64,000 bases of DNA from Barthelona sp. PCE. Taxonomy: Eukaryota. Shown piece by piece: positions 19,417-47,122 of this stretch. Location of the stretch: NCBI GenBank assembly GCA_040285745.1, contig JAUFOR010000008.1:2046001-2110000 (forward strand), in the 5' to 3' direction. Position 1 is the first letter of the stretch. The number at the start of each line of letters is the position of its first letter. Made by a program: the position numbers and the translations under genes. The notes beneath the pieces were generated by a model. The model made no database searches, had not been told where the DNA came from, and saw only the letters and a program-made list of their open reading frames with translations.

Positions 19417-19424
19417 ACTGCGGG

Positions 19425-22400: not shown

Positions 22401-22909
22401 AGGAACACTACCGAAACCCGTTGATTGATGACTACGTTGAGTCATCCCTGTTGAGTGAATTGTGCGCAGGCCTGAACAGATGTGGCATCTCCGATAGTGA
22501 CAATCAAGTGTACAGTCTTCCTCCACTATTCAACTTTGTTCCACTAACATGTCTGGCATTTGTATTCAAGTCAATTGACATGATGCGTTTTACTGAAATG
22601 GGAGACCTTAAATGGTACAAGAGCCAGAATCACTTTGATGAGACATCTTTGTGTATTGCCCTTCATACTTTTCTTCAGCAATTTCATCCCCATAATAGGG
22701 AGCGTTTTATTGGTCTTTTGGGTCAGTATATTCGCTCATACGTTGCGGATGAGTGGTCGTTTTCGAATGCATTATCAACCAAAACACTTGATGTGAATGA
22801 TCGTGTGAAAAAGGTGATGCGCTTACTCTCTGTGCTCAAGAAGAACAATTTCATCCCCAACGAGTACTTCAAGTCGCTTGTGCCTGAATATTTGGCTGCA
22901 ATTGTGTAA
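19425..22909 (+). CDS. WASHC5: WASH complex subunit strumpellin, 2 exons (19425-19646, 19691-22909), 1146 aa
   Basis: MDFISEHNPCGYQLLQLTATGDAVIAELTRL, FPDPDHRSTALSKQAAMIYIILFF, MREIVDKFFADNW and GVIEIDPKEMLEAGLRRELI. A phase-0 intron joins ...RQDS|ELYDLD. Confidence 0.95.
19647..19690 (+). other. 44-nt GT-AG spliceosomal intron
   Basis: GTATGG...TTTGCTAACTTTTAG, with branch point GCTAAC adjacent to the 3' splice site. Removal restores the conserved strumpellin frame. Confidence 0.92.
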
Positions 22910-28269: not shown

Positions 28270-28515
28270 ATGTCTCGTTACACCGTTGATGCAGTAGTTA
28301 AAAGTTATGGGCAGAAGTACCACGATGAAACATATGAGTACAGGCACGTGATATTGACGCCGGAAGCAACCAGAAGGTTACCTAAACCTGCTCGCTTGCT
28401 TACAGAAGCTGAATGGCGCTCCTTAGGTGTAAGACAGTCACCAGGATGGGAGCATTATATGAACCATTCACCTGAACCTCATATTCTGATGTTCAGACGT
28501 AGGCTTCAGAAATAA
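28270..28515 (+). CDS. CKS1: Cyclin-dependent kinase regulatory subunit Cks1/Suc1
   Basis: KYHDETYEYRHVIL..LLTEAEWRSLGVRQSPGWEHYMNHSPEPHILMFRR. Confidence 0.97.
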   Translation: MSRYTVDAVVKSYGQKYHDETYEYRHVILTPEATRRLPKPARLLTEAEWRSLGVRQSPGWEHYMNHSPEPHILMFRRRLQK

Positions 28516-29470: not shown

Positions 29471-32400
29471 ATGAGCGGAATAGAGAACTACTTGTTCAAA
29501 CAGTTGCAAAATTTGTCTAAATATGATAAATATATTCACGTATTGCTTACAAAGCAATTGGTTAGAAGTTTCAGATCTTTTCTGAAGTCCAATGGCGGTC
29601 GTACATTCTACATGAAACTAACGAGAGATAAGAATGCCTTTTATAAAGAAGAAGAAGAGAAGTCCGATTCAGAAAATCTTGAAACTGAAAATCTTGAAGT
29701 GAGCGCAAAACTTGAGGAGAGTGAGCACCAAGAAATTCTCTCACTGTCTTCAGCTCCAATTACAGCTGAGAATACTCCTAATATGGAGGTGAAGAAGTTC
29801 AGTTCACAGTCTAAGGTTACGCGTAAGCGTCGTAAGATGAAACGGCAGGAAAGTGAAGGCATGTTGGATGACATCGAGGCCCTTACCGGCATGAAGAATC
29901 TCAGCAATAAGGAAGATTGTATATATGATCTGGAGTTCAGTTCAGACATCACTACCTTTGTACAGTATGATCAGGAACAGTCCACTCGCGATCGAAACCA
30001 GTTCCACATGGGATACTCCACTAGTATCAATCAGAAGGAGGAGAGTCAGCAGATACTTGAGCACAAGACGTTGAAGACAGATAAGGATTATGATATGACC
30101 ATCATATATTTCTGGAAGAAGGACTTTGGAGTTGATTACAGTGACACTTTTCAGGATGTTTTAAGTATTGGTGTGCTTAATGTTCGTCATGAAGTCTTTG
30201 CAAGAGAAATTTCCAATTTGTTACGTATTTTTGAGTGTAGTACCAAAGAAGAGGTTGAGGAAAACCTTAATCAGATCGATAACCTTCAATTGAACAGAAT
30301 CAGAACAATTCCAGTTGGCAATGACCACTACGAGACGATTAAAGAAAGCAAAAGGTATGATCCTAAGAAAGAAGATAAGGATTACATTCACGGGGTGGCT
30401 AGTTCAATGCATTCGTTTTTGAGTGATCGTGCAATTAGTAATCAACATATGGAAGATTTGCCTACGATAGATCCAGCATTGCTGATGTCCATCAGATCAA
30501 ACGTTGGAAAATTCAGCACAGATAAATCTCGTACATTCACAGAGGAGGGTGTTACAAATACATTAGATTCTGCGATGCGTGTAGGCTATAGTGTACTAAA
30601 AGAGCTCAGTCCAGTCCAGCGAACTTATGAAAACGGTGATGGTAACCCGCCTCTTGTATCTGAGTTCAACTTCTGGCAGGGTCACTACAGCAGACTCATT
30701 CGTATTCGGCAACAGTTGAACCATAAGTCGTACCAGATGATTTTGATCCATGCTAATTCGATGAGAGGAACACACGGTAAAGACTGGAAGAAGTTTGAGC
30801 AGGAGTTGAATGATCGTGCTCGTGTTGTTCATGAGTATGTTGGATGCTTTGATCCCCTTCTACCGCTTATATACGCGTTGGAAGGAAAGACATACACTCA
30901 ACAATCTAAAGAAACACAGCAAATGAAGCGTTTCAGCATCATCGTGAAGGATATTGAGGAAACTGTGGATAAACGACAGGATCACTCACCCAACCGAATT
31001 TTTAGCATGTTTTCAGCATTCTTTGATAACTTGCTTATGTCTCTCGTTAGCAATCCATCAGGTCACTTGTTGAGTGTTGACCCACGCTATGTCAATTATT
31101 TCTTGCGGGCTTTAGGCCATTGTATCAAGAAGTATATTATCCATTTTCTTATTACGAACAAGGCACCCAATGTTGGTTCTGTGAACAATTTGATCAACAG
31201 TCTTGATTTAACAAAGATCGAAAATCTTTTTAATTTTCACTATATTTATGAAAGTTTGAAAGATTTCAACACAAAGAATATCTTTACAACAATTGAGCTC
31301 ATTAACGAGTTCAAAAACAGTTATAATGATTCACACAAAAGGTTGATTAGTGTTAATTCACAGCAAAGTATCAAAAAATTGTTTACCTTTAATATACATG
31401 ATTGCTTTAAGGACATAACGCGTTTCCAGATGTATTGTGACAGAATAATACATTATGTCAACATTCTCAGTGTATACATTCCTCTGACAGATGCCTTTGT
31501 TGGAGCCAAATGGTGTGATGACCTCAAGGCTGCAATCAATAGGGTTATATCTTCCGACACGCTTCCGCAATTAGAAGCCGATCTTACACACACAGATACA
31601 TTCATTACAGAGACAGATGAATCATCCATGCAAATTAGAAGCTGTTTTGAGGAACTTGACGAGCAGATTATTACTGTTCAGAAATTTCTTGGCTCCAATC
31701 TTGGCAAGCTTATCGACTCCCATAACAGACAGAAACTTACCAACTTGTCGATGACGGAAATTGAACAGTGGGGCGATTTGGAAATTGATGGAGAGACGAT
31801 TTCCAACTTGACAACAACAGAAGGCATAATTAGCAAATGTGTGAATAAGTTGTTGTTTATCACATCAATTAGTGCTATACGTATTGTTGCTGACATCAAA
31901 CTTATCCTTGACAGGCAAGTCCAACACATTGTTGATATCCTATTAATTGAAGTCAATAACGTAAAGAACCATCTTTCATCGATTATTAAGACGCATCATC
32001 GTCATCAGTCCCAACAATTCTCGAACTTCAAGCTTCTCTGTCTCATATTTCACATTGTTAACAGCCCTGTTGCATATTTAGAACATTGTGCAGAAGCATC
32101 GATAGGGTCTGTATCACAACTTACTTCATTATTAAAGCGGATTGGTACAATAACAGCGCATATTGATGATCTGAAGGATAAACTCCTGCAGAGATTCTCT
32201 ATCCTCATTTCGAGCCTTGAGAAGAGTTTGAACGTTCCCATTTTCAAGTTGCGTTCGAAATCGAAAGTTTTATTTGATCTTAATCACGTAAATACACTTG
32301 ATTGTCTGTTCAGCACGTTTGTTGCTCTCATGAACGAACTAGAGGAGGATGAAATGTTCTTGTTCATGAGTAATCTCTCGGTTCCAGATCTTTCACCTTC

Positions 32401-35400
32401 ACAAATACCTCACAACCCTTCATTGTCCTCAAAGGAGCAAGAGATCGAGGTTGGTCGTGTTAAGTTTGACAGATTCATCAAGCGAAAGGATTTATACTGG
32501 AGTTTCCGTAACCGTTTGGTTGAACTCGTAGAATGTTATAATGAAACGTTTTCTGACTGCATTCGTTCTGGTGCAATTGATGTGTGCAAGTCTATTCTCG
32601 TCCTCGTCGAGGATGCGATGCATGTCGGTCTCAAGTCGATTAGTTGGGGGTTTTCCAATTTAGATGCCTTCTTGGAAACAAATTGGGATCGGCTCAACTT
32701 GTTGAAGGAAAGTATTGAGGACTACAAGGAGATGCAATATTTCAGACTTTCTACATATCGGAACTTAGTTCATACCATCATCCTTGATAAGAAGAACTTT
32801 TCTACATGTCACACTGATAATTTCAAGTCAATTCCAACGCTTGAACAATTCCAAGAACATCAAATCGCGCATATCGAAGAGTTATCAGAGGGTTTCTCTT
32901 GTTCAGTCGACAGTTTTGATCGGAAATCGGCAGCAATGTTCAGTATTCCCAAGCGTGTTAGCCGTCTGGGTGGATCTATCCTTCCCCAAGAAGAGGAATT
33001 CTGTATTAAGGGACTCAGCGATTCCAGAAACCTTATTTCGGACGTAATCTCTCGTGCTGTACTCTATACTTGGAAGCGTGTCTTTGATATTGCTGCGGAA
33101 AACAATACCCCTTTATTTGTTGTTGGTTTACAGTTAGTTGGTCCGGTTTTGCAGCCAACATCGACTGAGGCAGCTGTTCAATCACGCTTGGGTTCTGTAT
33201 TCTCAAAATCACTTCAAGTTGCACAACATCTACCAGAATCAAGTGTGTTTTACAAGGCTTGTTCAGGCATTTCGAACACGGACTTTAGCAACTTTGATCT
33301 TGAGGCAAGTCTGTTCGAGTTTACTTTGAATAACAGTATTTTTGATGCTGATTTTGATTCTCTCTTTGATTCACCCAAACCTGAAGTAATTGAAGAGTCA
33401 CATCCTGCACAATCTCCGTTCTCTGAAACATTAAGTCAATCATTGTCTCCAGCCCAATCAACTAGTGAGATGCTTGATTTGGCAGAAAATAAGAAATCAA
33501 AGCTGGATACTGTCTCTGTCAACTCTATGAGTGGATCTGCGAATATCCCTCTTGAACCACAAGTCTCACATATGAAACCATCAACGCCGCTCAAGGACAC
33601 ACCAAAGAATTTTTCGAGTGTTAACGATGTAGATGGTATGATTGACATTTTTGCTGAGGTTGCAAATTTTGAGGAAAAGCCAAAGGAAGAGCAAGAAACA
33701 TTTGTGCTTGAGATTAATGAAAAGATCATTTCTTCGACCGAGGAAGTTGAGATTGATAGTGCTTCTTCACTTAACTCTGCATTTAAAAATGCAAAAGTTG
33801 TTGAAGAAGAAGAAGAAGAAGAAGCATTCACTTCAGATGCTTCAGTAGCTTCTTCAAAGATGAATGTGCTCACTGAAATTGTTCGTCGTGATCCGGCAGT
33901 TTTTAAGCTTTCAATGAACTTGTTTAAGCGAGTTGTTCAGAGTTACAAGCCGATCACAGAAGTGATAAAGGTGTTTGAGGAAGATTTTGGGTGGATTTAC
34001 AAGAGTGATGAGGAAGACGTTATTCGTGAAATAGCACTCAACAAACCTTCGCTCCAGGGATTCGAGGAGATGTTCCAAAAGCTGGAGAACGTACGCATCG
34101 AGATTCAGAAGCTTCAAGACTTTGTTCTCCCCGAGGGTTCCTTTATTGGTGTTGATTTTTCTCAGCTTAAACAAGCAATGCTTGCTCAGTTACATCAATG
34201 GTTTGGTCTGTATTCATATGTTCTTCGACAGGACTGTTTCAGCACTCTGGAACGTTTGATAATCAGTAACATTGGCCTTATGGAGCATATTTCGACGGAA
34301 ATAGCAAAGCTTGCTGATTACGATACTGTTGTCAAAATGATTAATGACATTAAGATGTATGGTTCGGAGAAGGAGTTGGAAATACACTCTATACAATCAG
34401 GATATCAGCTGCTGCACCGATATCACGTTGGTATTCCACGGTCTGCATCTGAGCAAGTAGAGCGGATATTTGCCGATTTCAAATCCAATCACGTTCGAGA
34501 ATTTTTGACACCGTTGCACTTTTTCTTCGATTACTGTCACTCAAAACTGGTTGGTGAACATCAGTTTGAGGCAAAGACTGAGTACACTGTATTGCAGTCG
34601 CAAAGGACAATGTCTGATGGATATACCGGTCGAAACTCTTACCGATCTATAACAAGCAGCATGCAAGACACGGATCAGGACTCGAACGCATCTCTTGAGT
34701 CAAAAGGATCGATTTTTTCAGCCCGTAGTGGTGCGAGTATGCACAGTAGACGTTCTGGGACAAGTAGTCATTCAGCTAAACATTCTCGCCACGGTAGGGT
34801 TTTAGAGTCCATGAGACATAAGGCTGCCACAATCATTCAGCGCGTTTGGCGTGGTTATGTTGTCAGACGTGATTTACGAAAGGCAAATCTTGTATACGCC
34901 ATGTCAGAGTCATCAAAGAACTCTCTCACATCACTTGAGTCAGATGTATTGGCACTCGACAGTGTATCAACCATGTCATCCTCGCTTCATAGCTCTTTTC
35001 TGTCTGTGACGAATACGGATATCTCTGGTCGATCAATGGATAGTTTGGCCTTTGCAATTGTGAAGCAGAAATCATCAATTGTATTTTTTAACCAAATGTC
35101 CCGACAAGCATCACATTCTATCGTTGAGAGCGGTATTCTCAACAGGGTAAGAGAACTCACTCAGATAGAGGGGTTCAGTAGCATCTTCCAGCACGTCTAT
35201 TCTGATGATGTGATTGAGGCATTGCTGTTGAAAACCCTTGACTTTATTTGGAATAAGTTGATGAAGAACCTGACGGAAGCTGAGACAAAGATTAAGACCT
35301 CTCATGCGATATTGAAGACAAAGGCGTTGGAGTTCGAGAAGTCTTTGCGTACACGTCTAATGCAGTTCCAAACTGAGCTCAGTGGAATGCATCCGTTGGA

Positions 35401-38400
35401 GCTGGGTATTACCATTGAGGAAAGTGACCATAGATTTGGTAAGCACCGTAATGTGTGCAACCGCATTACTGACTCAATCGATTATTATAGACACGCTGTT
35501 CGGATATTTAATCTTCCAACACTCCCAGTCAAACAGTTGGAGGCCCTAGCACGTATTCTTGTGATGATTGAGAACCTGCATAATCTACATTCGAATCTTT
35601 TCCAGGTCATCTCTTCAATTTTATCAAGCTCAATTTCTGCGTTGCGTCTTTCAAGGGTTGCAAAGGATGTGAAGAAGCTCAGTGATGGGTTCCTTTCAAT
35701 TTGGCATAATCCCAAAAACCACGACGAGGACTCTCGTCTCAATTTGATTCGGGGAATCAATCCAGAGTTCAACAAAGGAGCTTTCCAACAGTCTCAGCTA
35801 ATCAAAGATATCATCCACATGTTGGAGTTGGGTTCAAGCCTCTTACCGGTGCTGAAGATTATTGTTCAGGCAGGCTTCACAGTAGTTCATTGGCGGCATC
35901 TAATTGCTGAACTGCAATGGACGTTTGAAAATGAGGTGAACGGCGAGGATGGCCTGAGTTCAGACATTGTTGATCGCCGTAAGAACGATGTTGCTCTTAT
36001 TAATAGATTGACCTCTTCTTCCTCACTCGAGGAGCTGACTGTTGGTGAATTACACAAGTTTGATCTCATTTATCACGCTGATATTATAGAGAAGTATTCG
36101 AGACTGTCGGTAGAAGAGAGAGATATTGAGATACATCTTAAGGATATTACTGAACGTTGGCCTGCTTTATTCTTCGGTTTCATTAGTTACGAAACAGACT
36201 CGGATATGTTGGGGTTCATGAATAACCAAGGGTTCCAGATGGATAGTAAGATAGATCTTGCTAGTGACATAGAGTTAACCAAAGGTTCCCGTGATGTGTT
36301 GGACATTGAACAGCTCAACAGATTAATCCGTGATGTACATTCAGATAACATTGTGGTTGAAGATTTGTTAATTAAAGCTACACGTGTCTATCAAGAGATG
36401 TACGATACTGAAGATTCAAATATAAGTATCGCTCCACCTCTTATTACTCGATTGAAATTGTGGTTTGATGTTCTTGTTCATCTTAAGGAATCATTCAATG
36501 ATCTTCTTGAGTTGCAAAACTTAATTATTGTGCTTGAACGACTCTTCCGTGGACTTTTCGACTCTGAATCAGTTGATGTAATTAGTATGAATCTGATGCA
36601 GGTGTTCCACACGATGATGGTTAACTGGAATAATTTAATCCATGTCATCCACACGAAAGATGATCATGTTCTAGATTCTTTCATAACATTGCGTCAGATT
36701 GACTTTGATAAGAGTGCTTTGTTGACTGAAATTTTGCCTTCACTAAACAGAAGTTTGAATGAGGTACGGGAGAATCTTCAACCTTTGCTATTAGATCCGA
36801 GTCAATCGGTTAACCGCGCATATTTCCTTCCTGAGGTTGCACGTTTCAGATTCTTTGCAGATGCTCTTGTAGCAGAGAGCGCTGCTGATATTTTCTTGGG
36901 TAATTCTATTACTTTACTGTTTCCGATGCTCAAGAGCGTTCTAACAGATCACAAGAATCCTAATTTGATAGTAGGAACTGTAGGTCGTTTCGGAGAGATG
37001 TTACAATTTGATAATAGCATAGATATCTTCAACAAGAAGTTTAAGAAGGAGGACGAGGATGTGTTTACTAATCAGTATTTGCTGAGAAGATTACGTTACA
37101 TAGTTAATCAGATTGAAATTCAAGTTAGATTGACTGTACAAATATTGGTTCGTTCATGTTTTACTGAATACACTAATTCAATTGGTAACATCACTCAGTC
37201 ATATTCCAATAGCGCCTCAGCCGCTAACCGTGCGCTCATTGATAGTCTCAGTGAAGTGTGTTTGAACTATACTGGTCAGGCAATGTGGGTGGCTGCTCTA
37301 ATAGATTGGACGAGATTTGTGAAACGATGTATCACTCATTCTAAGCGTAGAGATGATTTATCTCGCCGACAAACAATTTATGGAGCTTTGGAGAGTTCAT
37401 TTTGTGAAAAATGTAGTTCTTCAAACAATGTATTGGATAAAATGCGTTTACGTAACGCAGCAATCACTGCGCATTATTTAAATGTTATAACTACGGATCT
37501 CACACAATGTTCTTCAAAGCAGGATAGGGAGGTTTTGTTCGGAAAGATGTTGCAATATCAATATGATGAAGATTGTGAAAATATTGTGTGGGTGTGTGTA
37601 GGTAAGAATTTGAAGTATAAGTATCAGTTTGACTTCATCTCCATCAACCAACCCGTAAAAAGGTCAGCTGTATATGGTATGCTTCATACAGATACTACTG
37701 GCAATGCTTTGCTTCCAATTTTTTCGAACAACACAGTTGATGCGTTTAAGAGAGCTTTTGCAGGAATCATTTTTGGTGGTCTTACCGTTGTTAGTGGTGC
37801 TGCGGGTATGGGTAAGAGCACCTTCGTGCAACAATGCTGCACTTTGTTTGGTACTGTTCCAGTTGTAGTAGATGCAACAATGACTCCAACTGTTAAGCAA
37901 CTCTCCAATTTCTGTGAGGGATGTGCACTCACTTTACAATGGGTTTTCATTCAGAACCTTCATGTGTTGCCAGCTGATGTATTATCTCGACTTTCTGTTT
38001 TTGTTCACAGTATTCGTATGAGAATGGGTTTCATGAACAGTGACCGGAAGACGGTTTTCTTTGGTACAACTGAGAACCCTATCAATTCTATTGATAATCA
38101 GGATATTCGTGCAGTTATGCGACCTGTTAGATTACCCAAAAATGTGTTAAGTGGTGTTGTTGAGGCAAAATTAGTCTTGTTTGGATTTCCAGAAGCCTCT
38201 ATTTTTGCCAAAAAATTGATTGAGCTGATTTTGACAGTGCAACCGAAGATAAATTGTGATATTACAATGAGTCAGATCAGCGATATCATTACTGCAGCTC
38301 ACGATATCATGGTCGACATTAACAACCAGCTGGACGCTACGAATCTAGGCAGTCGTTCTGCACGTAGTGAGGTTACCAACACGGCAAAGAGATCAATTAA

Positions 38401-41400
38401 TGTGGCAGTATACGCCATCAATCATGCATGTGAGATATTTTTGCATCACATGACAAAATACAGTCATTTTGTTCGAGCAGAGCTTGCAGATCCATTGCTG
38501 ATAGAAGCTCTCAAGACATTAAATCAGAGTATGGACACCAGCAGCCGTCAAAAAGCTCTTTACACAAGGGTTAATGATATTGTCAACACATACTTCCACT
38601 ACTCGTCACTTAACATGAGTAGATCTAGTCATGCGAATGAAGCAAGCATTTTGCTAACAAATGAAGAGTTCTTACACAGTGAGATCGAGGAGGTTATTGA
38701 AGCACTTCATCTGGCCAAACCACCCGCCGTCATGTATGATACTATCCACTCTGTTTTGGAGATTCTTAACGATCGCAATGCTGTTCACATTTGCGGTCCA
38801 CCAGAGTGCGGTAAGACAACGCTCGTAGAGATTGTAGTTAATGTATTGAACAGAGTAAGTCCTGCAAGTATAATAACCATTCCCTCCAACATAGTAAGTG
38901 AAAGAGAGCTCTTGAAGCAACTGGAATTAGCCTCGCTGTTTGCTAACCAGACCATATTCTTCCACATTGAACTGAACAGTTCAATGATTCTGCCGTTGTA
39001 CAAGTGTCTTGGATCTAACATTATTGCTAACCGCAATAGGTACTTACTCAAATCAGGTATTGTGTGGGAAGTTCCATCAAATGCAGTCTTTGTATTCGAG
39101 AGTTGCACTGACCTCCAGTTCAATCGATCGATTGAATTCAATAACGTTCCTCAGGTTGTTGTTCCTCAGTTGGTTACTGTCAACTGTCTTGTTGATCAGT
39201 TCTGCAAGCGCATGAGCTATGACGAGTCAAAGCACATTGCGTCCAAGAACTCTTTTGGGAACGGTATCGAAGCAATGATTGGGTCGAGACTGCAGTCTCA
39301 TTTGGGCACCCCGAGTATGAGCATGCATGGATCAGTCAAATCATATGGTTTTGCCCACAGTGAAGCACCATCTCTGGCTCCTTCAATAAGTGGGCTGGGT
39401 ACAAGAAAATCTCCAGCATTAAGTAACGGTAGCCGTGCACGTAGTCGTATATCATATGCTCCAACAGTATTAAATGCCAACCTTATTCAGGATATGCAAA
39501 TATTTGAAGAAGATTATCTTGCTTCTCTTGAGCGGGATGATGATATAAGTGGAGGATCTCACAAGAATTCTGACTTGGGTTTTTCTAACAGAGGAAGTAG
39601 AACTCCAGCACCTGTTTCTTTTGATATTGAAGAGCCAGAAGGGTCAGACATTGTTGATCCAGAAGAGGAATCAACTCCTTGTCTCATTCGATGGCTTTGT
39701 ACAAAGTTCCTTTTACCAATCCACGCTCTGGTTTTTATCGTTAGTGACACCGAATTACTACGTTTCAAACCAAAGACCTCCTTGTCTTTACCTCAGCTTG
39801 TGCGAGGTGTGATTGGTATTATGGGCGGATTTATCAACACTGCGATAGAGAAAGGCGAACACGAGTTTCCGTTCGAAGGTATGGTCATCCGTAGACTGTT
39901 TGCGATGGCAGTCGTTTGGACAATAGGGCAAGTTCTTCCTTCATCACAGATTGTTCGTTTGAATTATATCGTCCTTGCTATATTCAAGCTCCCAGGATTG
40001 CCACGCGTTAAGATGGATATCGCTGCAACTGCTAGTCGTAACGTCCTCAGAAAGCGTCGTACCACCCCTCGTTCTTCAAGAAACCAAAAGGCATCAACCG
40101 ATAGCGTTTCACTTCGTATGAAGAACTTGGATATTGATCTTTTTACATCATTCCTTGACATGTCGAGTGGGCATTTCCTTTCATTGAAGCGTTACGTTGT
40201 CCAAAATGATATTCCACCAGTCATCCGTGAAAACTCAGTTGAACAACATATTGACGTACTCAATTACAGATATCCAACAACAGTTGCTGTTCGCATGCAC
40301 TTTGTGTCGAGTTATTCCATTCGTGCGTACAATGCAGGTTATCTACCAACTCCACCAACTTTTGCTGTGCTTCCTGAGCCGAACTCAAAGCACGAGCTTA
40401 TCCTCAACGCGATTGGTGAGATTGGTGATGCCGACTTTAACATGGACGATGCGTCCATTTTGAAAGTGGATTTCTCAACCACTGAAGCACCCGAGTTAGT
40501 TGGTGCATTGTTGGAGAGATCTCAGCCTGTTGCTCATGAGACATACAGGGCTCGCGTAAAGAACAAGTTCAACACACTACTGGTTAAGTGCCTTCACTAT
40601 GACGAATCAGATCGCCCAGACAACGTCATGCGCCTGACGATCAATCCCATTGTCGCAGGAAAGAAGATCAACGACTTTGGTTTCCAGAATGTTGCGTTCG
40701 AGAACATTTCATTCGTGTTGGAATTTAAGTCGTCTGACGTTCCAATGACGGCTCACAGAGGTATGATTCCTGTTTGCGTTTCTCCTCCATCTTATGATGA
40801 CCTGACTGACGTGTACATCGACCGTCTAAAGTCTCATCTGTCTGTGAAACGTGGCTTCGCTCCATCCCTTGATTCTATTCCTCGTATCATCGCTAAGATT
40901 ATCATTGACTGTACGCGTGTGCTCGCAGGTTGTATCGGTGTTGATCAGAGAGCTTTAGAGGACGATGCTAAAGGTGATGAAATTAACCTCGACACAGCCA
41001 CGTTGAAGGAAGTGTCATACACAGAGCACAAAACTCTGCCTATCGACCCCCTACAACTTTCTGAGGTAATGTCCATCATTATGCTGATCGCACCCAAACT
41101 GCAACCAAACCCCATACAGTATTTCCAGTACATCTACTCAAGCTTATCTGTTGTGACGCATCACCTACCAGAAGAGGTTAATTTCAAGATTTTGGAGCGT
41201 TTCCAGCAGACGCTGAAGGAGAACAACATCACATTCGATCCTGCAGTGTTTAATCAACTTCTATTACCTTTCCTAATATATACACGTAATGATAAGTATA
41301 ACATAACTTATCTAACTCAAAAATCATGCGCTAACTATCTGAGTGAATGGTGTGGCATCTATTCTAAGATACGTGATCAGGATGCGCGTTACCTATTATC

Positions 41401-44400
41401 AACTAGTGGGTTGCATCTTGGATACTTGTTAACTCTTCCAAAGATCCACACACTGTGGTGTATCCTTGAGAAAGATTTTGTGCCTGATGGTTTTTTGCCT
41501 GTTCCATATTTTCTTTATGACTTTTTAAAGAGCATTGTGAAGATGCTTAATTATGAGTTCATACTGTACAGAACGGGTTTCACAATAGATAGTAATGAGT
41601 TACCTGATGATGTCAATAAGCCAATAATATTTATGGTGACGGAAGATATTGTCAGGAGTACTATTTATGATATTTATTCATTTAATCGAGCATTAACCAT
41701 GCATACAAAGCGAAAGTTTACCTTCTTGCTATTGGCCCATCAAAGTGACCAAATAATTAATGAGTATTACGGATTCTTTAAGACTGATGAAAACGGAATC
41801 TTTTACACTTCAGTGTATGAGCTGACTTTTTCGCTCGTTTTAAACAACGATCAGCTCATGGAAGACGCATTTATGGAATCCAGCAGCGAGAGCGAAGACG
41901 AAAAAGAGGATATCGACAATGAATATATCAACAATGAATCCAAGCAGGAGACAGAAAACTGTGATGAGTTACATGTTCACGTCGACGATAATGTCATTGT
42001 ATGTTCTGATAAAGATAGTGAGAAAGATGAGACACCCCATGGCGTTGCTGTTCTTACCAAATTTTCTATGGCGCTTGGTGTTCACCCTGGTGACTTGGTC
42101 GTCAACGTTGTTCGTGTTCTATTTTCCATGCTATCATCCCGAATCATGGATTCTGACATCAGTAATCGTTTTCATACGATATGCGAGGGTTTCTTCTCTT
42201 TTGAAGGTTTTCCATCAATGACGAATCTTCTGAACAGTCGATCAGAATCTCAATCAAAAGAGATCACAAGTGTCATGGGTGCCAACAGAGAGCGAAAGAA
42301 GACTGAAATAGTTGAACCATTGCATCGTAGCCGTGTTATTGTGGATAAATTTGGAATATTCAGTGATTTTATCAACATCATTGGTAAAATTATCCATAGT
42401 AATTCCAAATCTGTATATTATCACAACGTTTCGAAGTACATCACCACAATGAATATTATATCCTTCTTACCTACAATGGTGAGTGTTGTTGAGAGTATTC
42501 GTAAAATCCAAGCACAGGAAGGATACCGTCTAGATATAATTACAAAGGTGTTAAATAGACAATATGATCTGCGTAGCATCCTGGAGACAAACATACAGAA
42601 TACGAAAGATAACATTAAGGAGTTGGAGGAGAAGCGGATCGAGATATTCAACGAATTTTCATCTTTTCACTTGGAAGTTGTTCGTCTTAAGAAGCTACTC
42701 AAGATAAATCTTGATCATGATGTCGAGTCGCTTTTGTTGAAGTTCGTTGACAGTCATTTGTATGCGATTGAGAAGAGCATTGAGGTGTTTTGTGAGAAAT
42801 ATGCAACGATCATCGATCGATTTGATTCCACATTCCCACTGTTACTGCACGAATGGAGCAACGACACACACAGCTTTGTTGAAATGTTCTATGTTGTGTT
42901 CAAGCGCATGCCTGCACCAGACGACGAGCAAATCTATGAATACCTCAAAGAGCGCGAACACTTGGAGAGTTACACACTGAATACCGTCCCTTACGATCAG
43001 CCCAAAGACCAAAACGAGCTGCCGCCAGTCGAAAATGAAGAGTTTCAGTTCACAGGTCCGGAGCCAGAAGCGGAATCAGAATCTGACAATGTTAACTATT
43101 ATGAGTTCGACGAACCCAATCTTTTCTTGCAAGAGCAGCATTATATTGCGTTCTACAAGCAGTTGATGCACTTTAACTTTGCAGAGTACCTCAAGGACGG
43201 TAAATTATTTATGAATCTGAGCAACTTCCTTGACATACCCGTGAACACTTTGCAGCAAATGCATAAGCTGTTTACTTCAAAGCAGGCTCAGTTTGAACAC
43301 CTGGTTGAGCACATTCCGTCTATATCACAACTTTACCGGTTCTTAGTCGATTTCATGGCGATTCTAGGCGACATGCTTCCTGTTCTCATTGATGAGTCTG
43401 ATACTGAACAGTTTGATGTTAACGAACTGAAGGAACAACTCAAGTTTTCCTCAACTAGTACCGATCTTCTCAAGCAAGACTATGACTTCACGACGATGAC
43501 GCTCACTGAGCAACGTCAGCAGCTGATTGATCTTGAAAATGATCACGGGCGGTACACAGAGGTCATCAGCGGGCTGCATTCTCTGATAAAAGTTTTGGAC
43601 GAAGTGGTCAACATTAACGATACAAAGCTGTTTATGAACGGATCGTATATCATATGCAGACTTCTATTCATGCCCCTGTTGCCGGGCTGGATGCATTCGC
43701 AGTTCGACGAGACAATGAACAGTGTGTTTGTTAACCGACTGCATCTGCCATTGGAGGCGTCCTACAATATTAAAGATGAGTTGCTCTCGTTGGAGCTCAC
43801 ATCCAAAGAATCTAAGTTCAAATATCCGTGGCTGCTCGATCTCCAATGCGACTTTGGTTCATTTGAACAATTATTGTCTGTCCTTGTCAACTTACGAATT
43901 CACCCTGTTATCACTTATGACAATGAGTTGTCCATCTCGTTGCTTGAGAAGCTGTGCAGTCGTACTATTCATAAGGGGCACCTTCGCGAATACCGGAATC
44001 TGGATCCTGAGGCTGTGTATATTGTATACATTGACTCACAAGAAGACATAGATCAACTACACTTTATGTTTGAGCAGGTGAACAAGGTGAGTATTAATAA
44101 GGAGCGATATCCCGTGTGTTGTCTTAACGGAATTCACGAATTTAAGCTATTCTTTGACTATTTACCGTTTTTGGTTATTGTTCCGGATGAGAACTGGTTG
44201 CATCGCATTAACTTTACGCTTACAAGCTGTATCTATTGGGATTCAGAGCCATCACGTGCTTTCATGAGTTATGAATTGACAAACAGCATATTCCACAACG
44301 AACATGATACTCTAAAAGCACAACTCCAACAGTATATCAAGGACTCATATAATCTCAAGACTTCCATAGACGATGAGCGCAATGGGCTGATCGATGAGAT

Positions 44401-47122
44401 CATTCAAAAGTCGGAGCTAGTCCATCGCACGTTCCGTCAGGAGAGGAAGAAGATTAGAGAGAGAAAGAAGCGCTTCATTGAGAAGAAACGCGAGAAGGAA
44501 CTCAAGGAAGAGAAGGAGCGTGAACTCTTCCAGGGAGTTCCACAGGTTCAAGAAGAGTATGTTGAGGTCGCTTTGAGCGATGTGTACGATAGTTACGATG
44601 AGGAACAGTTCTCTGATAACGTTGTCACTGAGGATGTTGAAGTTGATGAAATGGAAACTGTTGCCTTTGAAGAAGTTGTGCTGAGCGAATCAGATGATGA
44701 AGAAACGGTTGAATTCATGGAACTTGGTATTGATTTGGTTACGTTCACCACCCGTATGAAGAGGCTTGCCTCACTGAAGCAAAAAGTTATAGATACACAG
44801 AATGTGTTCACTGCAAAGTACACATATTTCCAACCGTACCTTGACTTCTGTAGTGAGATATTTGATTTTGAACGGGAGTTTTATGCAAGCACTGACCTTC
44901 TAAATCCATGGGAACTACGAATCACTCCCATTCGCACTCATTCAGGCCACTGGCTCAACCATTTGGGCAAGATCACGCCTGCAGCACCTGTTGGATCGGT
45001 ATCCAGAGTTAAGGCGCTCAAGAGATCGGTTCAGCTGTATTACTATTATATTTTCTGCACCATAGATCCGAAGTTGCGTCCAATCATTGCGCTTAACATG
45101 TGCGTTCGTCGTATGACCCGTGAGGATGAACAGAACGGGGAGTTGCTGAGAGCGTTCATCAGACTAAATCAAACTTACTCATTTTCCATCAGCATCAGTC
45201 AGCGTCTTTATGTTCTTTCGCAGAGCTACCCACGTTTTTCGAAACTTATAGTCAACGCTGATCCTCTTGTTGTTGTGCCTGAGCTCAACTCATGGATCAA
45301 CAACGGGGCATCACTGTCTTACAATGATATACCGAGTCACTTAACGACTTTCCCACTGGCTGATGATTTTAACGCCTTGGAGAAATTTATCATTATGTTG
45401 GTTGTACTCCCTAAGAACACACATGATTGGACGATATTGCAGTTCGTTTCTTCAGTTCTTGGCCATCGTGTTGGTGCAGCGTTACATGCATCTTCGCTTG
45501 AAACCATTTGGTCTATGTGTGACCTGCTGCTCGGCAAACACTTTGACTGTAGATGCGGAATGGTAGTGTATGGTGATCACATTCAGCCTGAAATGATTAC
45601 CGAAAATGCCATTTGTCAGGCTCAAATTCGTGCTGTTCCCATGTTTTACGATGAGAATTCGCGTGACAAAGCTATTAACACGTTCAGAAAGACAGGAAAA
45701 TGGTCAGTTTTTTATTGCTTGACGACTGACGAAATTCTCTCTGCTCTTCAATTACGACAAGACCCTGAAATAGTTGAGCTTGATATTGGTATTATCATTT
45801 TGGTCAAGGCTAAGCTTTATGTTGAAAGTTACAGTTCGCTCCTTAAAATGGAAGCAGTACGTTGTTGGGTTGACAACGCATCTACCATCCGTGCTTGTGT
45901 CCAGAACATTGCTGCATCTTACGCTTGCCCTGACCTTCACAAGTTCATGCCATCTATTCACGGTGCTGTCACAATGAACGCTATCGTGCACACGATGGGC
46001 GTATTGTGTATGGCTTACCCAGAGCACTTCAGTATCATGGACTGTAACCCAGCGGCTATTATTATGACACCATTAGTGGAGAACGTCGACATGTCTGAGA
46101 TCACAGATTTTGTTGACTACTTCATTTGTAGTGGTATTGATAATCCATCAATTCGAACGTTGGCAGTTCGTGTCTTCCAATCATTCTTTGTAGGAGGAAC
46201 TTATCTCCTCAATAACAAGCAGTATCCTCTGCCGCATCACTTTGATGTGCTTCCTAGTTGGACTGGTATGATGCGGAATCCCAATGTCAAGGGAACACAC
46301 GCGTTCTCAACACTATATGGCGACTCTTTCCCACTCTTCAAGGATTCAATATCAACTGTATTCTCTTCGTTAATCGAAAAGCTGCCAGTCGCTTTGAATC
46401 TTACTCCATTATACGTTGTACCATCAATGACACAGCTAGAACTCAACAATGTGCGTTTGATTCACGCCATTGAGATTGCTAGTCAGTTCATTCAGAATTT
46501 ACCTGCAATCAATTATTCAGAGGAAGAATGGATCAGACAACAAACTCAGGTTCTTAAATCAATCGTAGTATTTGCTGATTTTATGTTTAAGCAACTCTTC
46601 TCCAGTGTTAATAATCCCGTTGTGAAACGTGTCGCACTGTCGCTTATTTCACATCGAATTCCAGACGTTTTCATAGATGAATTTCCATTTTTGCAGAAGT
46701 ACTTTAAGTATCAAAAGCATATATCCCTGTTTTTTAATTTCCTCACAAAAGCTATTTCTCAGCTTAATTCAGGGAATGTTATTGATGTTTCCTTGTTACC
46801 CAAACCACAATATTTCTTCTCTCATCTGAAAGAAACATTTTTGAATCAGATAACTAGCGTTTCTTCTGATCAGGTTATTGTTTTAGGACCTGCTACAGTT
46901 GCTACTACAGTACCTTTAGTTTCAGGACTTGTCACTGACACTGGATTTTTCTTGCCTTCTTCTTCAGCATCATTAATGCGTTTTTCATCTTCCCACACAC
47001 CAATTATTCAGGATAATGAAATTGTTGCTTTTTCAACATATACTAATGAAAATGTTAAGTGCATTTTTGTTAAGAACAAGGATATTCGTGATATCTCCCT
47101 CGTGTTCAGCCAAAATCAGTAA
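29471..47122 (+). CDS. Giant, highly divergent dynein heavy chain-like protein (5883 aa) with IQ motif
   Basis: DHC_N1-like PLVSEFNFW..L..IRQQL (~30650), IQ motif AATIIQRVWRGYVVRR (~34823-34880) and DHC_N2-like HWRHL..EERDIEIHLKDITERW and RAYFL. AAA1 P-loop GAAGMGKS (37796-37819) and AAA2 P-loop GPPECGKT (38795-38818) are followed by stalk-like coiled coils. Uninterrupted ORF. Confidence 0.85.
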   Translation: MSGIENYLFKQLQNLSKYDKYIHVLLTKQLVRSFRSFLKSNGGRTFYMKLTRDKNAFYKEEEEKSDSENLETENLEVSAKLEESEHQEILSLSSAPITAENTPNMEVKKFSSQSKVTRKRRKMKRQESEGMLDDIEALTGMKNLSNKEDCIYDLEFSSDITTFVQYDQEQSTRDRNQFHMGYSTSINQKEESQQILEHKTLKTDKDYDMTIIYFWKKDFGVDYSDTFQDVLSIGVLNVRHEVFAREISNLLRIFECSTKEEVEENLNQIDNLQLNRIRTIPVGNDHYETIKESKRYDPKKEDKDYIHGVASSMHSFLSDRAISNQHMEDLPTIDPALLMSIRSNVGKFSTDKSRTFTEEGVTNTLDSAMRVGYSVLKELSPVQRTYENGDGNPPLVSEFNFWQGHYSRLIRIRQQLNHKSYQMILIHANSMRGTHGKDWKKFEQELNDRARVVHEYVGCFDPLLPLIYALEGKTYTQQSKETQQMKRFSIIVKDIEETVDKRQDHSPNRIFSMFSAFFDNLLMSLVSNPSGHLLSVDPRYVNYFLRALGHCIKKYIIHFLITNKAPNVGSVNNLINSLDLTKIENLFNFHYIYESLKDFNTKNIFTTIELINEFKNSYNDSHKRLISVNSQQSIKKLFTFNIHDCFKDITRFQMYCDRIIHYVNILSVYIPLTDAFVGAKWCDDLKAAINRVISSDTLPQLEADLTHTDTFITETDESSMQIRSCFEELDEQIITVQKFLGSNLGKLIDSHNRQKLTNLSMTEIEQWGDLEIDGETISNLTTTEGIISKCVNKLLFITSISAIRIVADIKLILDRQVQHIVDILLIEVNNVKNHLSSIIKTHHRHQSQQFSNFKLLCLIFHIVNSPVAYLEHCAEASIGSVSQLTSLLKRIGTITAHIDDLKDKLLQRFSILISSLEKSLNVPIFKLRSKSKVLFDLNHVNTLDCLFSTFVALMNELEEDEMFLFMSNLSVPDLSPSQIPHNPSLSSKEQEIEVGRVKFDRFIKRKDLYWSFRNRLVELVECYNETFSDCIRSGAIDVCKSILVLVEDAMHVGLKSISWGFSNLDAFLETNWDRLNLLKESIEDYKEMQYFRLSTYRNLVHTIILDKKNFSTCHTDNFKSIPTLEQFQEHQIAHIEELSEGFSCSVDSFDRKSAAMFSIPKRVSRLGGSILPQEEEFCIKGLSDSRNLISDVISRAVLYTWKRVFDIAAENNTPLFVVGLQLVGPVLQPTSTEAAVQSRLGSVFSKSLQVAQHLPESSVFYKACSGISNTDFSNFDLEASLFEFTLNNSIFDADFDSLFDSPKPEVIEESHPAQSPFSETLSQSLSPAQSTSEMLDLAENKKSKLDTVSVNSMSGSANIPLEPQVSHMKPSTPLKDTPKNFSSVNDVDGMIDIFAEVANFEEKPKEEQETFVLEINEKIISSTEEVEIDSASSLNSAFKNAKVVEEEEEEEAFTSDASVASSKMNVLTEIVRRDPAVFKLSMNLFKRVVQSYKPITEVIKVFEEDFGWIYKSDEEDVIREIALNKPSLQGFEEMFQKLENVRIEIQKLQDFVLPEGSFIGVDFSQLKQAMLAQLHQWFGLYSYVLRQDCFSTLERLIISNIGLMEHISTEIAKLADYDTVVKMINDIKMYGSEKELEIHSIQSGYQLLHRYHVGIPRSASEQVERIFADFKSNHVREFLTPLHFFFDYCHSKLVGEHQFEAKTEYTVLQSQRTMSDGYTGRNSYRSITSSMQDTDQDSNASLESKGSIFSARSGASMHSRRSGTSSHSAKHSRHGRVLESMRHKAATIIQRVWRGYVVRRDLRKANLVYAMSESSKNSLTSLESDVLALDSVSTMSSSLHSSFLSVTNTDISGRSMDSLAFAIVKQKSSIVFFNQMSRQASHSIVESGILNRVRELTQIEGFSSIFQHVYSDDVIEALLLKTLDFIWNKLMKNLTEAETKIKTSHAILKTKALEFEKSLRTRLMQFQTELSGMHPLELGITIEESDHRFGKHRNVCNRITDSIDYYRHAVRIFNLPTLPVKQLEALARILVMIENLHNLHSNLFQVISSILSSSISALRLSRVAKDVKKLSDGFLSIWHNPKNHDEDSRLNLIRGINPEFNKGAFQQSQLIKDIIHMLELGSSLLPVLKIIVQAGFTVVHWRHLIAELQWTFENEVNGEDGLSSDIVDRRKNDVALINRLTSSSSLEELTVGELHKFDLIYHADIIEKYSRLSVEERDIEIHLKDITERWPALFFGFISYETDSDMLGFMNNQGFQMDSKIDLASDIELTKGSRDVLDIEQLNRLIRDVHSDNIVVEDLLIKATRVYQEMYDTEDSNISIAPPLITRLKLWFDVLVHLKESFNDLLELQNLIIVLERLFRGLFDSESVDVISMNLMQVFHTMMVNWNNLIHVIHTKDDHVLDSFITLRQIDFDKSALLTEILPSLNRSLNEVRENLQPLLLDPSQSVNRAYFLPEVARFRFFADALVAESAADIFLGNSITLLFPMLKSVLTDHKNPNLIVGTVGRFGEMLQFDNSIDIFNKKFKKEDEDVFTNQYLLRRLRYIVNQIEIQVRLTVQILVRSCFTEYTNSIGNITQSYSNSASAANRALIDSLSEVCLNYTGQAMWVAALIDWTRFVKRCITHSKRRDDLSRRQTIYGALESSFCEKCSSSNNVLDKMRLRNAAITAHYLNVITTDLTQCSSKQDREVLFGKMLQYQYDEDCENIVWVCVGKNLKYKYQFDFISINQPVKRSAVYGMLHTDTTGNALLPIFSNNTVDAFKRAFAGIIFGGLTVVSGAAGMGKSTFVQQCCTLFGTVPVVVDATMTPTVKQLSNFCEGCALTLQWVFIQNLHVLPADVLSRLSVFVHSIRMRMGFMNSDRKTVFFGTTENPINSIDNQDIRAVMRPVRLPKNVLSGVVEAKLVLFGFPEASIFAKKLIELILTVQPKINCDITMSQISDIITAAHDIMVDINNQLDATNLGSRSARSEVTNTAKRSINVAVYAINHACEIFLHHMTKYSHFVRAELADPLLIEALKTLNQSMDTSSRQKALYTRVNDIVNTYFHYSSLNMSRSSHANEASILLTNEEFLHSEIEEVIEALHLAKPPAVMYDTIHSVLEILNDRNAVHICGPPECGKTTLVEIVVNVLNRVSPASIITIPSNIVSERELLKQLELASLFANQTIFFHIELNSSMILPLYKCLGSNIIANRNRYLLKSGIVWEVPSNAVFVFESCTDLQFNRSIEFNNVPQVVVPQLVTVNCLVDQFCKRMSYDESKHIASKNSFGNGIEAMIGSRLQSHLGTPSMSMHGSVKSYGFAHSEAPSLAPSISGLGTRKSPALSNGSRARSRISYAPTVLNANLIQDMQIFEEDYLASLERDDDISGGSHKNSDLGFSNRGSRTPAPVSFDIEEPEGSDIVDPEEESTPCLIRWLCTKFLLPIHALVFIVSDTELLRFKPKTSLSLPQLVRGVIGIMGGFINTAIEKGEHEFPFEGMVIRRLFAMAVVWTIGQVLPSSQIVRLNYIVLAIFKLPGLPRVKMDIAATASRNVLRKRRTTPRSSRNQKASTDSVSLRMKNLDIDLFTSFLDMSSGHFLSLKRYVVQNDIPPVIRENSVEQHIDVLNYRYPTTVAVRMHFVSSYSIRAYNAGYLPTPPTFAVLPEPNSKHELILNAIGEIGDADFNMDDASILKVDFSTTEAPELVGALLERSQPVAHETYRARVKNKFNTLLVKCLHYDESDRPDNVMRLTINPIVAGKKINDFGFQNVAFENISFVLEFKSSDVPMTAHRGMIPVCVSPPSYDDLTDVYIDRLKSHLSVKRGFAPSLDSIPRIIAKIIIDCTRVLAGCIGVDQRALEDDAKGDEINLDTATLKEVSYTEHKTLPIDPLQLSEVMSIIMLIAPKLQPNPIQYFQYIYSSLSVVTHHLPEEVNFKILERFQQTLKENNITFDPAVFNQLLLPFLIYTRNDKYNITYLTQKSCANYLSEWCGIYSKIRDQDARYLLSTSGLHLGYLLTLPKIHTLWCILEKDFVPDGFLPVPYFLYDFLKSIVKMLNYEFILYRTGFTIDSNELPDDVNKPIIFMVTEDIVRSTIYDIYSFNRALTMHTKRKFTFLLLAHQSDQIINEYYGFFKTDENGIFYTSVYELTFSLVLNNDQLMEDAFMESSSESEDEKEDIDNEYINNESKQETENCDELHVHVDDNVIVCSDKDSEKDETPHGVAVLTKFSMALGVHPGDLVVNVVRVLFSMLSSRIMDSDISNRFHTICEGFFSFEGFPSMTNLLNSRSESQSKEITSVMGANRERKKTEIVEPLHRSRVIVDKFGIFSDFINIIGKIIHSNSKSVYYHNVSKYITTMNIISFLPTMVSVVESIRKIQAQEGYRLDIITKVLNRQYDLRSILETNIQNTKDNIKELEEKRIEIFNEFSSFHLEVVRLKKLLKINLDHDVESLLLKFVDSHLYAIEKSIEVFCEKYATIIDRFDSTFPLLLHEWSNDTHSFVEMFYVVFKRMPAPDDEQIYEYLKEREHLESYTLNTVPYDQPKDQNELPPVENEEFQFTGPEPEAESESDNVNYYEFDEPNLFLQEQHYIAFYKQLMHFNFAEYLKDGKLFMNLSNFLDIPVNTLQQMHKLFTSKQAQFEHLVEHIPSISQLYRFLVDFMAILGDMLPVLIDESDTEQFDVNELKEQLKFSSTSTDLLKQDYDFTTMTLTEQRQQLIDLENDHGRYTEVISGLHSLIKVLDEVVNINDTKLFMNGSYIICRLLFMPLLPGWMHSQFDETMNSVFVNRLHLPLEASYNIKDELLSLELTSKESKFKYPWLLDLQCDFGSFEQLLSVLVNLRIHPVITYDNELSISLLEKLCSRTIHKGHLREYRNLDPEAVYIVYIDSQEDIDQLHFMFEQVNKVSINKERYPVCCLNGIHEFKLFFDYLPFLVIVPDENWLHRINFTLTSCIYWDSEPSRAFMSYELTNSIFHNEHDTLKAQLQQYIKDSYNLKTSIDDERNGLIDEIIQKSELVHRTFRQERKKIRERKKRFIEKKREKELKEEKERELFQGVPQVQEEYVEVALSDVYDSYDEEQFSDNVVTEDVEVDEMETVAFEEVVLSESDDEETVEFMELGIDLVTFTTRMKRLASLKQKVIDTQNVFTAKYTYFQPYLDFCSEIFDFEREFYASTDLLNPWELRITPIRTHSGHWLNHLGKITPAAPVGSVSRVKALKRSVQLYYYYIFCTIDPKLRPIIALNMCVRRMTREDEQNGELLRAFIRLNQTYSFSISISQRLYVLSQSYPRFSKLIVNADPLVVVPELNSWINNGASLSYNDIPSHLTTFPLADDFNALEKFIIMLVVLPKNTHDWTILQFVSSVLGHRVGAALHASSLETIWSMCDLLLGKHFDCRCGMVVYGDHIQPEMITENAICQAQIRAVPMFYDENSRDKAINTFRKTGKWSVFYCLTTDEILSALQLRQDPEIVELDIGIIILVKAKLYVESYSSLLKMEAVRCWVDNASTIRACVQNIAASYACPDLHKFMPSIHGAVTMNAIVHTMGVLCMAYPEHFSIMDCNPAAIIMTPLVENVDMSEITDFVDYFICSGIDNPSIRTLAVRVFQSFFVGGTYLLNNKQYPLPHHFDVLPSWTGMMRNPNVKGTHAFSTLYGDSFPLFKDSISTVFSSLIEKLPVALNLTPLYVVPSMTQLELNNVRLIHAIEIASQFIQNLPAINYSEEEWIRQQTQVLKSIVVFADFMFKQLFSSVNNPVVKRVALSLISHRIPDVFIDEFPFLQKYFKYQKHISLFFNFLTKAISQLNSGNVIDVSLLPKPQYFFSHLKETFLNQITSVSSDQVIVLGPATVATTVPLVSGLVTDTGFFLPSSSASLMRFSSSHTPIIQDNEIVAFSTYTNENVKCIFVKNKDIRDISLVFSQNQ

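Follow-up and report, generated by a model that had tools for sequence, protein, structure and literature searches.

The stretch of 64,000 nucleotides (nt) from Barthelona sp. PCE analyzed here (contig JAUFOR010000008.1; the whole stretch is called the window) harbors an open reading frame (ORF), P0001, that encodes an extremely diverged dynein heavy chain. Its AAA1 domain lacks catalytic residues, its AAA2 domain lacks the inserts that bend the linker, and a paralogue of the same organism, P0003, shows losses in both domains and carries the same IQ motif in an insertion of the tail neck. We propose, with a probability of roughly 0.6, that the two proteins are non-motile, probably calcium-sensitive structural or regulatory axonemal dynein subunits that derive from a duplicate of an outer-arm gamma chain.

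Loss of catalytic and mechanical elements in AAA1 and AAA2

The reference set comprised at least 117 metagenome loci with a canonical AAA1 Walker B motif. BLAST searches used 36 of their ORFs (2000 amino acids (aa) or longer), and a profile was built from 27 (3200 aa or longer). The references were chosen by the AAA1 Walker B motif, so their conservation of this motif is by construction. A preliminary description of the window had called AAA1 of P0001 catalytically dead, and this was borne out by the sequence: Walker B has QN instead of the catalytic DE, sensor II has Ser instead of Arg, and the arginine-finger position, which is Arg in 42/42 references, is Asn in P0001 and Asn or Cys across the pair. 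An intact Walker B DE and an arginine finger for AAA1 were looked for by alignment and neither was found. Exchange of the Walker B Glu to Gln alone is reported to render AAA1 hydrolysis-deficient (10.1101/2020.09.22.308700).

The H2 insert of AAA2 was shorter by at least 14 aa and the DDNK motif of the PS-I insert was absent. The H2 and PS-I patterns were present in 28/35 and 32/35 references, respectively, and in the AAA2 of neither paralogue. Between the P-loop of AAA2 and the beta4 Glu, the spacing was 101 residues in both paralogues versus 115–135 in 42/42 references, which fits loss of the H2 insert. These inserts are described as bending the linker and as conserved in all dynein families, and AAA2 as binding a structural ATP (PMC4047620). 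Without the acidic Walker B residues, sensor II and arginine finger of AAA1, and without the inserts of AAA2 that bend the linker, no hydrolysis-driven powerstroke is expected. Judged by these motifs, P0001 is very probably not a motor.

GAAGMGKS, WVFIQNLH and GPPECGKT, the motifs on which the preliminary description was built, were confirmed at the positions given in Table 1. A scan for GxxxxGK[TSQR] motifs in P0001 returned the P-loops of AAA1 and AAA2 only. The earlier statement that AAA3 and AAA4 have no P-loop held for a canonical P-loop, but AAA3 retains a degenerate Walker A, the Lys of which (K3640) sits in an invariant column.

The extent of divergence was also seen outside the motifs. 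P0001 keeps 24/120 highly conserved columns and every reference at least 92; the AAA2 alignment was out of register, so that 24 is a lower bound. When AAA1 was aligned alone, 21/67 conserved columns were kept, compared to 23 in the poorest of 57 references. In global alignments of windows delimited by eye, z-scores were 14.9 for AAA1 and 8.4 and 7.3 for the two AAA2 halves. Against AAA1 templates the Walker B region of AAA1 scored 60.9, and against AAA6 templates 21.7. A domain swap between AAA1 and AAA6 was rejected, and the AAA6 score was read as general AAA similarity.

A paralogue with similar losses and a common IQ motif

A word search with the tail of P0001 (2/3712 candidates matched) identified the paralogue P0003 (PCE1_003705, KAL0230143.1; 5342 aa) at an E value of 3e-29. 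It is encoded outside the window, apparently on the same contig. P0001 matched P0003 with 109 and 97 bits and any reference dynein with at most 48.5 bits. The overall identity of the pair was 23% over 4740 aligned positions. From AAA1 to AAA3 the paralogues were similar (z 4.8–10.4), whereas the windows for the stalk and the microtubule-binding domain (MTBD) scored no higher than shuffled sequences (z -0.7 to -0.4). In P0003, the AAA1 Walker B reads AN, the AAA1 P-loop is gone, and the P-loops of AAA2 and AAA3 are intact. The P-loop of AAA2 is kept in both paralogues and that of AAA1 in P0001 only.

The IQ motif lies in an insertion that was absent from the reference dyneins compared (Table 1). 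It is the best-conserved stretch of the pair, with 12 consecutive identical residues (the next-longest run is 5), and 0 reference ORFs over 2000 aa matched the strict IQ pattern. Losses common to both paralogues, together with the common gain of the IQ motif, indicate that their ancestor had lost motor function and acquired the IQ site before the two diverged. From its sequence, the motif is likely to bind an EF-hand protein. The IQ insertion had been missed earlier. To judge by its title, one study reportedly deals with IQ-like motifs in Leishmania dyneins. The gamma chain of Chlamydomonas carries the calcium sensor LC4, which does not use the predicted IQ motifs of gamma in the solved structure (PMC7817835).

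Proposed role of the pair

According to our proposal, a duplicate of an outer-arm gamma chain (DNAH5/8-type) would have lost its motor function and then split into two paralogues. AAA2 would still hold a structural ATP and keep the ring folded, and the acidic, unrecognizable stalk tip would no longer grip microtubules. Through its gamma-type tail, the chain may join a two-headed dynein assembly that also comprises intermediate and light chains and another heavy chain as partner. In the neck insertion, the IQ motif may recruit calmodulin or a centrin/LC4-like EF-hand protein, and the neck would become calcium-responsive. Such a chain could be located on the axoneme or, in the role put forward for the protein DNAHX, could serve during transport as a partner for packing and inhibition. 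Barthelona sp. PCE was described as Microbarthelona vorax, a swimming organism with two flagella (PMC13087550). We counted this, and the presence of KAP and SHIPPO genes in the window, as support for a role of P0001 in a flagellar dynein complex, which we favor to some degree.

Identification of P0001 as a dynein heavy chain

The preliminary description of an uninterrupted ORF of 17.65 kb proved correct. The frame of P0001 (29471–47122, plus strand) has 5883 codons and 0 stops, compared to about 366 stops expected from base composition, and the other five frames hold 235–580. Its codon usage is normal and tracks that of 20 neighboring ORFs (relative synonymous codon usage, r = 0.895; 0.40 and 0.59 for the shifted frames). 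The database twin of P0001 in Barthelona sp. PCE, PCE1_003747, is annotated as a hypothetical protein and lacks 16 residues of P0001. The stretch that is spliced out in its gene model may be an intron or an annotation artefact, and our conclusions are unaffected either way. P0001 contains many low-complexity insertions and is about 1150–1400 aa longer than named DNAH8 chains (4492–4741 aa). This supported the earlier view of a heavy chain derivative expanded by more than 1000 aa, with a dead AAA1 and signs of selection.

A custom dynein profile built from the 27 long references matched P0001 collinearly over residues 308–3147. Windowed profiles up to AAA2 gave 11–66 bits in 8/11 windows and -1.3 and 5.3 bits in two, compared to at most 4.9 bits for controls, and nothing clear was seen beyond AAA2. 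Whole large pieces of P0001 matched Pfam poorly, whereas domain-sized pieces exceeded the cut-offs for DHC_N1, DHC_N2, AAA_6 and IQ; dynein hits of hidden Markov models (HMM) were present beyond the P-loops. In the ESM Atlas, the features of residues 1950–3249 were nearest to dynein clusters (0.92–0.96). We concluded from the sequence that P0001 is an extremely diverged dynein heavy chain. The dynein domain order reported earlier was confirmed for tail, linker, AAA1 and AAA2 by Pfam and the collinear HMM; from AAA3 to the C-terminus it was backed by weaker tests only.

Searches with single sequences returned little. A word search of protein databases with P0001 matched 1/2801 candidates, which was P0001 itself. 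An exhaustive search with residues 2150–3249 against 1.84 billion representatives also returned P0001 only; the default filters of this search miss even the known paralogue (41.6 bits without filters), so that absence of orthologues is not implied. PDB searches gave nothing for residues 1–2700, and DNAH17 at an E value of 0.53 together with spurious PPR repeats for the middle of P0001. A motif scan of viral contigs gave 0 matches. A complex prediction of the two N-termini scored 0.01; it was folded without alignments and is no evidence either way.

The C-terminal half

From AAA3 to the C-terminus, 8/8 pieces were without a dynein match in Pfam. The PDB sequence search with the C-terminal part found no dynein and only GCN4 and antibody noise, the ESM Atlas had no usable match for residues 3901–5883, and local hhalign scans of this half with P0001 alone were significant in 0/15 windows. 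With a two-sequence profile of P0001 and P0003, the own template was the best of 12 in 7/12 windows and in 5/10 windows from AAA3 onward. Own-template scores were 60.9 for AAA1, 37.6 for AAA2S, 19.2 for AAA6L, 18.0 for AAA3, 16.7 for CC2, 7.5 for AAA5L and 5.3 for the C-terminus. The putative MTBD window contains 13 K/R and 35 D/E, compared to a net charge of -3 to +8 in 26 references.

Two AlphaFold models were built on dynein alignments, and the best Foldseek matches of both were dynein heavy chains or their assemblies. The model of the last 1094 residues was collinear with dynein motor domains (best Z 12.2, root mean square deviation 9.3, 495 residues). For the middle model, generic coiled coils were the best VIA matches and dynein stalks followed at rank 5 and below; the underlying alignment was judged misregistered in AAA4 and at the stalk tip. 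The models lean to dynein by construction and are consistent with, not independent evidence for, a dynein fold. That the C-terminal half is partly recognizable as dynein is weakly supported.

Probable origin from an outer-arm gamma chain

For gamma and f-alpha, the class label was verified by comparing one member of each with solved structures; the other labels were assigned from the tree and from known class signatures. The best-conserved tail block of P0001 scored 38.5 bits with gamma, 35.2 with f-alpha, 26.2 with beta, 23.5 with single-headed, 16.9 with f-beta and -3.8 with cytoplasmic profiles. For the N1 tail of P0003, the values were 81 for gamma, 46 for f-alpha, 32 for beta, 14 for f-beta and -3 for cytoplasmic chains. 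A word search with P0003 (10/4440 candidates) returned nine non-self matches, eight named DNAH8 and one unnamed.

The tail tree comprised 20 rows and 1080 columns, with 16 loci, 2 DNAH8 proteins and the pair. Single-headed and alpha chains, the tails of which do not span the region, and 7/9 of the DNAH8-type matches were left out. The paralogues were joined (support 100/99) and placed as sister to gamma (94/97), beside and not within the six sampled gamma chains. Approximately unbiased tests rejected placement with f-alpha (p = 0.025) or beta (p = 0.006), the two alternatives covered. Under a mixture model, P0001 alone also joined gamma, with a Shimodaira-Hasegawa-like approximate likelihood ratio support of 80. 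The pair is, in our view, probably gamma-derived (DNAH5/8-type). P0001 had been suggested to be an axonemal or cytoskeletal scaffold or regulator. Profiles and tree sharpen this: the tail belongs with those of two-headed axonemal chains of the outer-arm gamma type and not with cytoplasmic ones.

Counter-evidence and alternative explanations

Several observations weigh against our proposal. An Arg located five residues ahead of the finger site is common to the two paralogues (R3219 in P0001) and makes the loss of the arginine finger less certain than the loss of Walker B. That LC4 does not use the predicted IQ motifs of Chlamydomonas gamma means that an IQ match need not bind. For the C-terminal half, AAA4L, CC1, MTBD, strut and AAA6S failed template matching (5/12), the ten windows after AAA2, set by eye, had single-window z-scores of -0.9 to 2.3, and the mean predicted local distance difference test (pLDDT) values of the two AlphaFold models were 43 and 45. 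With regard to the class of origin, the scores of P0001 alone for gamma and f-alpha differ by 3 bits, and an earlier tail tree of 610 columns without the paralogue had placed P0001 by the cytoplasmic outgroup with weak support (74.5/64). All placements are on very long branches, and according to a warning given by the tree program, groupings of this type are frequently spurious.

The pair could be metamonad members of an old non-motile lineage that includes DNAHX, Kollmar class 12 or the diplomonad DHC_A and DHC_B. The mechanism would be the same and only the age would differ; we regard this as unlikely. DNAHX has the same parent class, a large size and a degenerate stalk, but it keeps Walker B and is reported absent from protists, and no IQ insertion is mentioned in the accessible part of the paper (PMC11785096). 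Class 12 is described with class-3-like tails and without a typical microtubule-binding site, and orphans of Thecamonas and Guillardia stand at its base (PMC5100056). Giardia and Spironucleus are listed with two orphan dyneins each (PMC5100056 supplement). Two tail word searches, both word-limited, found no DNAHX-like protein. The branching of the pair outside the six sampled gamma chains would fit an old lineage, but is also expected from long-branch attraction.

It is still less probable that the pair constitutes the outer-arm gamma of this organism, which would then have no active gamma. Its slot would be filled by two dead, IQ-bearing paralogues that act as a calcium-controlled brake or scaffold, perhaps one per flagellum or per part of a flagellum, and beta and the inner arms would give the force. 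This would be a natural outer arm with one head making no force. The gamma-type tails of both paralogues fit this explanation, as does gamma being the carrier of the LC4 calcium sensor in Chlamydomonas (PMC7817835). The genome of Barthelona sp. PCE has 10.2 Mb, described as the smallest among known free-living eukaryotes (10.1101/2023.05.03.539051), which makes spare copies costly. No canonical gamma of this organism appeared in two tail word searches; however, the word filter missed even P0002 in one of them, so that this non-appearance means nothing. In addition, diplomonads, the sister lineage, keep a classifiable gamma plus orphans, and loss of a single axonemal dynein was called rare (PMC5100056).

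A fast-evolving, still active motor with non-canonical residues is very improbable. In AAA1, P0001 has kept Lys and Ser of Walker A and probably Asn of sensor I, a coiled-coil stalk seems to be present in the models, and metamonad proteins are described as often divergent (10.1101/2023.05.03.539051). However, four independent catalytic or mechanical elements are gone together, and the paralogue lacks the AAA1 P-loop as well. The neighboring ATPases (XPB helicase and an RFC subunit) retain their motifs, and genome-wide fast change, therefore, does not explain the loss in P0001. Just as improbable is a decaying "ghost" gene, the reading frame of which survives only because truncation would yield a product harmful to its partners, as argued for DNHD1 (PMC8754002): extreme divergence and many low-complexity insertions would fit, but both copies have remained uninterrupted (5883 and 5342 codons) despite about 23% identity, the IQ motif and the AAA2 P-loop are selectively kept, and codon usage is normal.

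Comparison with known non-motile dyneins

The closest canonical class by tail profile, database matches and tree is outer-arm gamma (DHC3; DNAH5/DNAH8), the calcium-linked chain of this arm. Unlike P0001, it is an active ATPase of 4500–4750 aa with intact AAA1 motifs and AAA2 inserts and without an insertion in the neck. DNAHX is described as a DNAH5/8-derived chain of 5272 aa with many insertions, a degenerate AAA1, a disrupted stalk and MTBD and a retained Walker B; it was proposed to be the non-motile partner of another heavy chain and is present only in some animals (PMC11785096). P0001 resembles DNAHX in being probably gamma-derived and unusually long and in its degenerate AAA1 and apparently disrupted stalk and MTBD. 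Unlike DNAHX, it has lost the Walker B DE and the AAA2 inserts, is far more diverged, has an IQ insertion in the neck and occurs as one of two paralogues in a protist. DNHD1 is described as a full-length orphan heavy chain that lacks the Walker B catalytic residues and is needed for flagellar assembly (PMC11785096), and its class 11 as metazoan (PMC5100056). The absence of these residues is common to P0001 and DNHD1, which we know by description only; being a loss, it is weak evidence for kinship. Set beside both proteins by their descriptions, P0001 may work like DNAHX or DNHD1.

The survey of Kollmar describes eight extra classes (10–17) and 75 orphans, based on 216 sequences from 110 species, with canonical-class tails; its accessible text holds no analysis of ATP-site motifs (PMC5100056). 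Like these orphans, P0001 combines a recognizable canonical-class tail with a strongly diverged motor, and class 12 is given a gamma-type tail and no typical stalk. The same text names no barthelonid and mentions no IQ insertion. The novelty suggested earlier for P0001 was not supported as stated: a long, non-motile, gamma-derived subfamily, DNAHX, has been published, as have many orphan classes (PMC11785096, PMC5100056). P0001 may nonetheless represent an undescribed class. Our literature searches found no paper on barthelonid or skoliomonad dyneins; most subscription journals, figures and supplement trees were outside their reach, and a prior mention is possible. Within this reach, the combination of a protist pair, the complete catalytic and mechanical loss and the conserved IQ insertion is new, and non-motile dyneins as such are known.

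In the papers found, non-motile heavy chains were studied only in animals. Barthelona sp. PCE, a tiny anaerobic protist, devotes some 34 kb of coding DNA to two dead dyneins in a genome reported to be the smallest of a free-living eukaryote, which argues that such chains serve a need of a minimal flagellate. The pair shows what selection has kept (the gamma-type tail, the AAA2 P-loop and the IQ motif) and what it has discarded (AAA1 chemistry, the linker-bending inserts and the stalk tip). If gamma duplicates became dead regulators in both animals and metamonads, this would point to a repeated evolutionary route or to an overlooked ancient class. An ancient eukaryotic class of non-motile gamma-derived dyneins that includes DNAHX seems doubtful to us.

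A frog protein named "DNAH8 isoform X3" (P0008) was considered as a possible DNAHX and rejected, being 63% identical to other DNAH8 chains. Its AAA1 is partly eroded: Walker A, the stretch following Walker B and the sensor I loop are altered, and the catalytic DE is kept. P0008 is possibly a duplicate heading to inactivity.

Features of P0001 and gene neighborhood

Table 1. Features of P0001; positions are those of the window and residues those of the 5883 aa product.
Feature	Residues	Position	Strand	Support or remarks
ORF P0001, predicted motor-dead dynein heavy chain, 5883 aa		29471..47122	+	database twin KAL0230185.1 / PCE1_003747, 5867 aa
N-terminal tail, DHC_N1, two-headed-dynein type	308-1255	30392..33235	+	Pfam DHC_N1 33.6 bits (cut-off 28.3); custom HMM E 4e-12
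Distal tail helical bundles	1416-1671	33716..34483	+	best against outer-arm gamma and inner-arm f-alpha profiles, 52.6 bits; DYH2-5-8_CC E 0.004, below cut-off
Tail-neck insertion, about 250 aa, Ser-rich	~1660-1910	34448..35200	+	common to P0003, absent from reference dyneins compared
IQ motif	1783-1803	34817..34879	+	Pfam IQ 29.1 bits (cut-off 20.3)
DHC_N2 / linker	1898-2720	35162..37630	+	Pfam DHC_N2 43.2 bits (cut-off 31.9)
AAA1	2730-2960	37658..38350	+	Pfam AAA_6 32.7 bits (cut-off 25.2); z 14.9 against local shuffles
AAA1 Walker A, GAAGMGKS		37796..37819	+	Lys and Ser retained
AAA1 Walker B, WVFIQNLH		37940..37963	+	QN in place of the catalytic DE in a gap-free alignment with 44 reference dyneins
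AAA1 sensor I region		38066..38080	+	Asn apparently retained; GYAGR loop after sensor I lost; register varies between two alignments
AAA1 sensor II region		38255..38275	+	Arg replaced by Ser
AAA2	3060-3590	38648..40240	+	hhalign probability 95.9
AAA2 P-loop, GPPECGKT		38795..38818	+	intact
AAA2 arginine-finger position		39140..39160	+	not Arg
AAA2 low-complexity insertion		39218..39670	+	
AAA3	~3595-3935	40253..41275	+	AAA+ fold in model, Z ~5; moderate support
AAA3 degenerate Walker A		40370..40393	+	Lys kept, glycines lost; AAA3 without Walker B
Putative AAA4 and stalk		41318..43840	+	coiled coil in model, pLDDT 60-74; boundaries by eye, weak support
Putative antiparallel stalk coiled coil around degenerate MTBD region		~42488-43630	+	
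Acidic insert in MTBD region		42953-43135	+	
In-frame GT-AG stretch, 48 nt		43411..43458	+	spliced out in database gene model, giving 5867 aa
Putative AAA5, strut, AAA6 and C-terminal domain		43838..47119	+	model collinear with dynein motor domains
Charged insertion in putative strut		44438-44725	+	

The window is gene-dense eukaryotic DNA, with genes for XPB, KAP, strumpellin, an RFC subunit, RasGEF and SHIPPO as neighbors. Cilium-linked genes near the dynein gene are those for KAP (6285–8741, plus strand), a leucine-rich repeat plus IQ protein (55469–56947, plus strand) and a SHIPPO-repeat protein (60607–61773, minus strand). A small gene of the Cks1 type (28270–28515, plus strand; Pfam CKS, E 8e-32) is located directly upstream of the dynein gene, and a very diverged Sec8-like protein is encoded at 24918–27845 on the plus strand (Sec8_N E 0.0014, below cut-off). 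The strumpellin gene (19290–22909) begins upstream of the listed ORF and has a GT-AG intron of about 44 nt with a branch-like CTAAC, which provides a model for introns of this genome. The ORF at 17308–19296 (plus strand) resembles, on visual inspection, a degenerate kinesin that has a coiled-coil tail, and had no Pfam match. Four genes belong to metabolic families common in bacteria and archaea: an amidohydrolase (3768–5132), a class IV aminotransferase (13165–14277), a glucokinase-like protein (49863–51113) and an ADP-dependent phosphofructokinase/glucokinase (57799–58992). A lateral origin of these four would be a guess.

Among the metagenome loci, the dynein AAA1 encoded by L023 (ORF 6413–10507, minus strand) is broken just before the FNC motif by an unrelated sequence that ends in an intein-like QAN-C junction. 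The insert is possibly an intein in a dynein-2 heavy chain.

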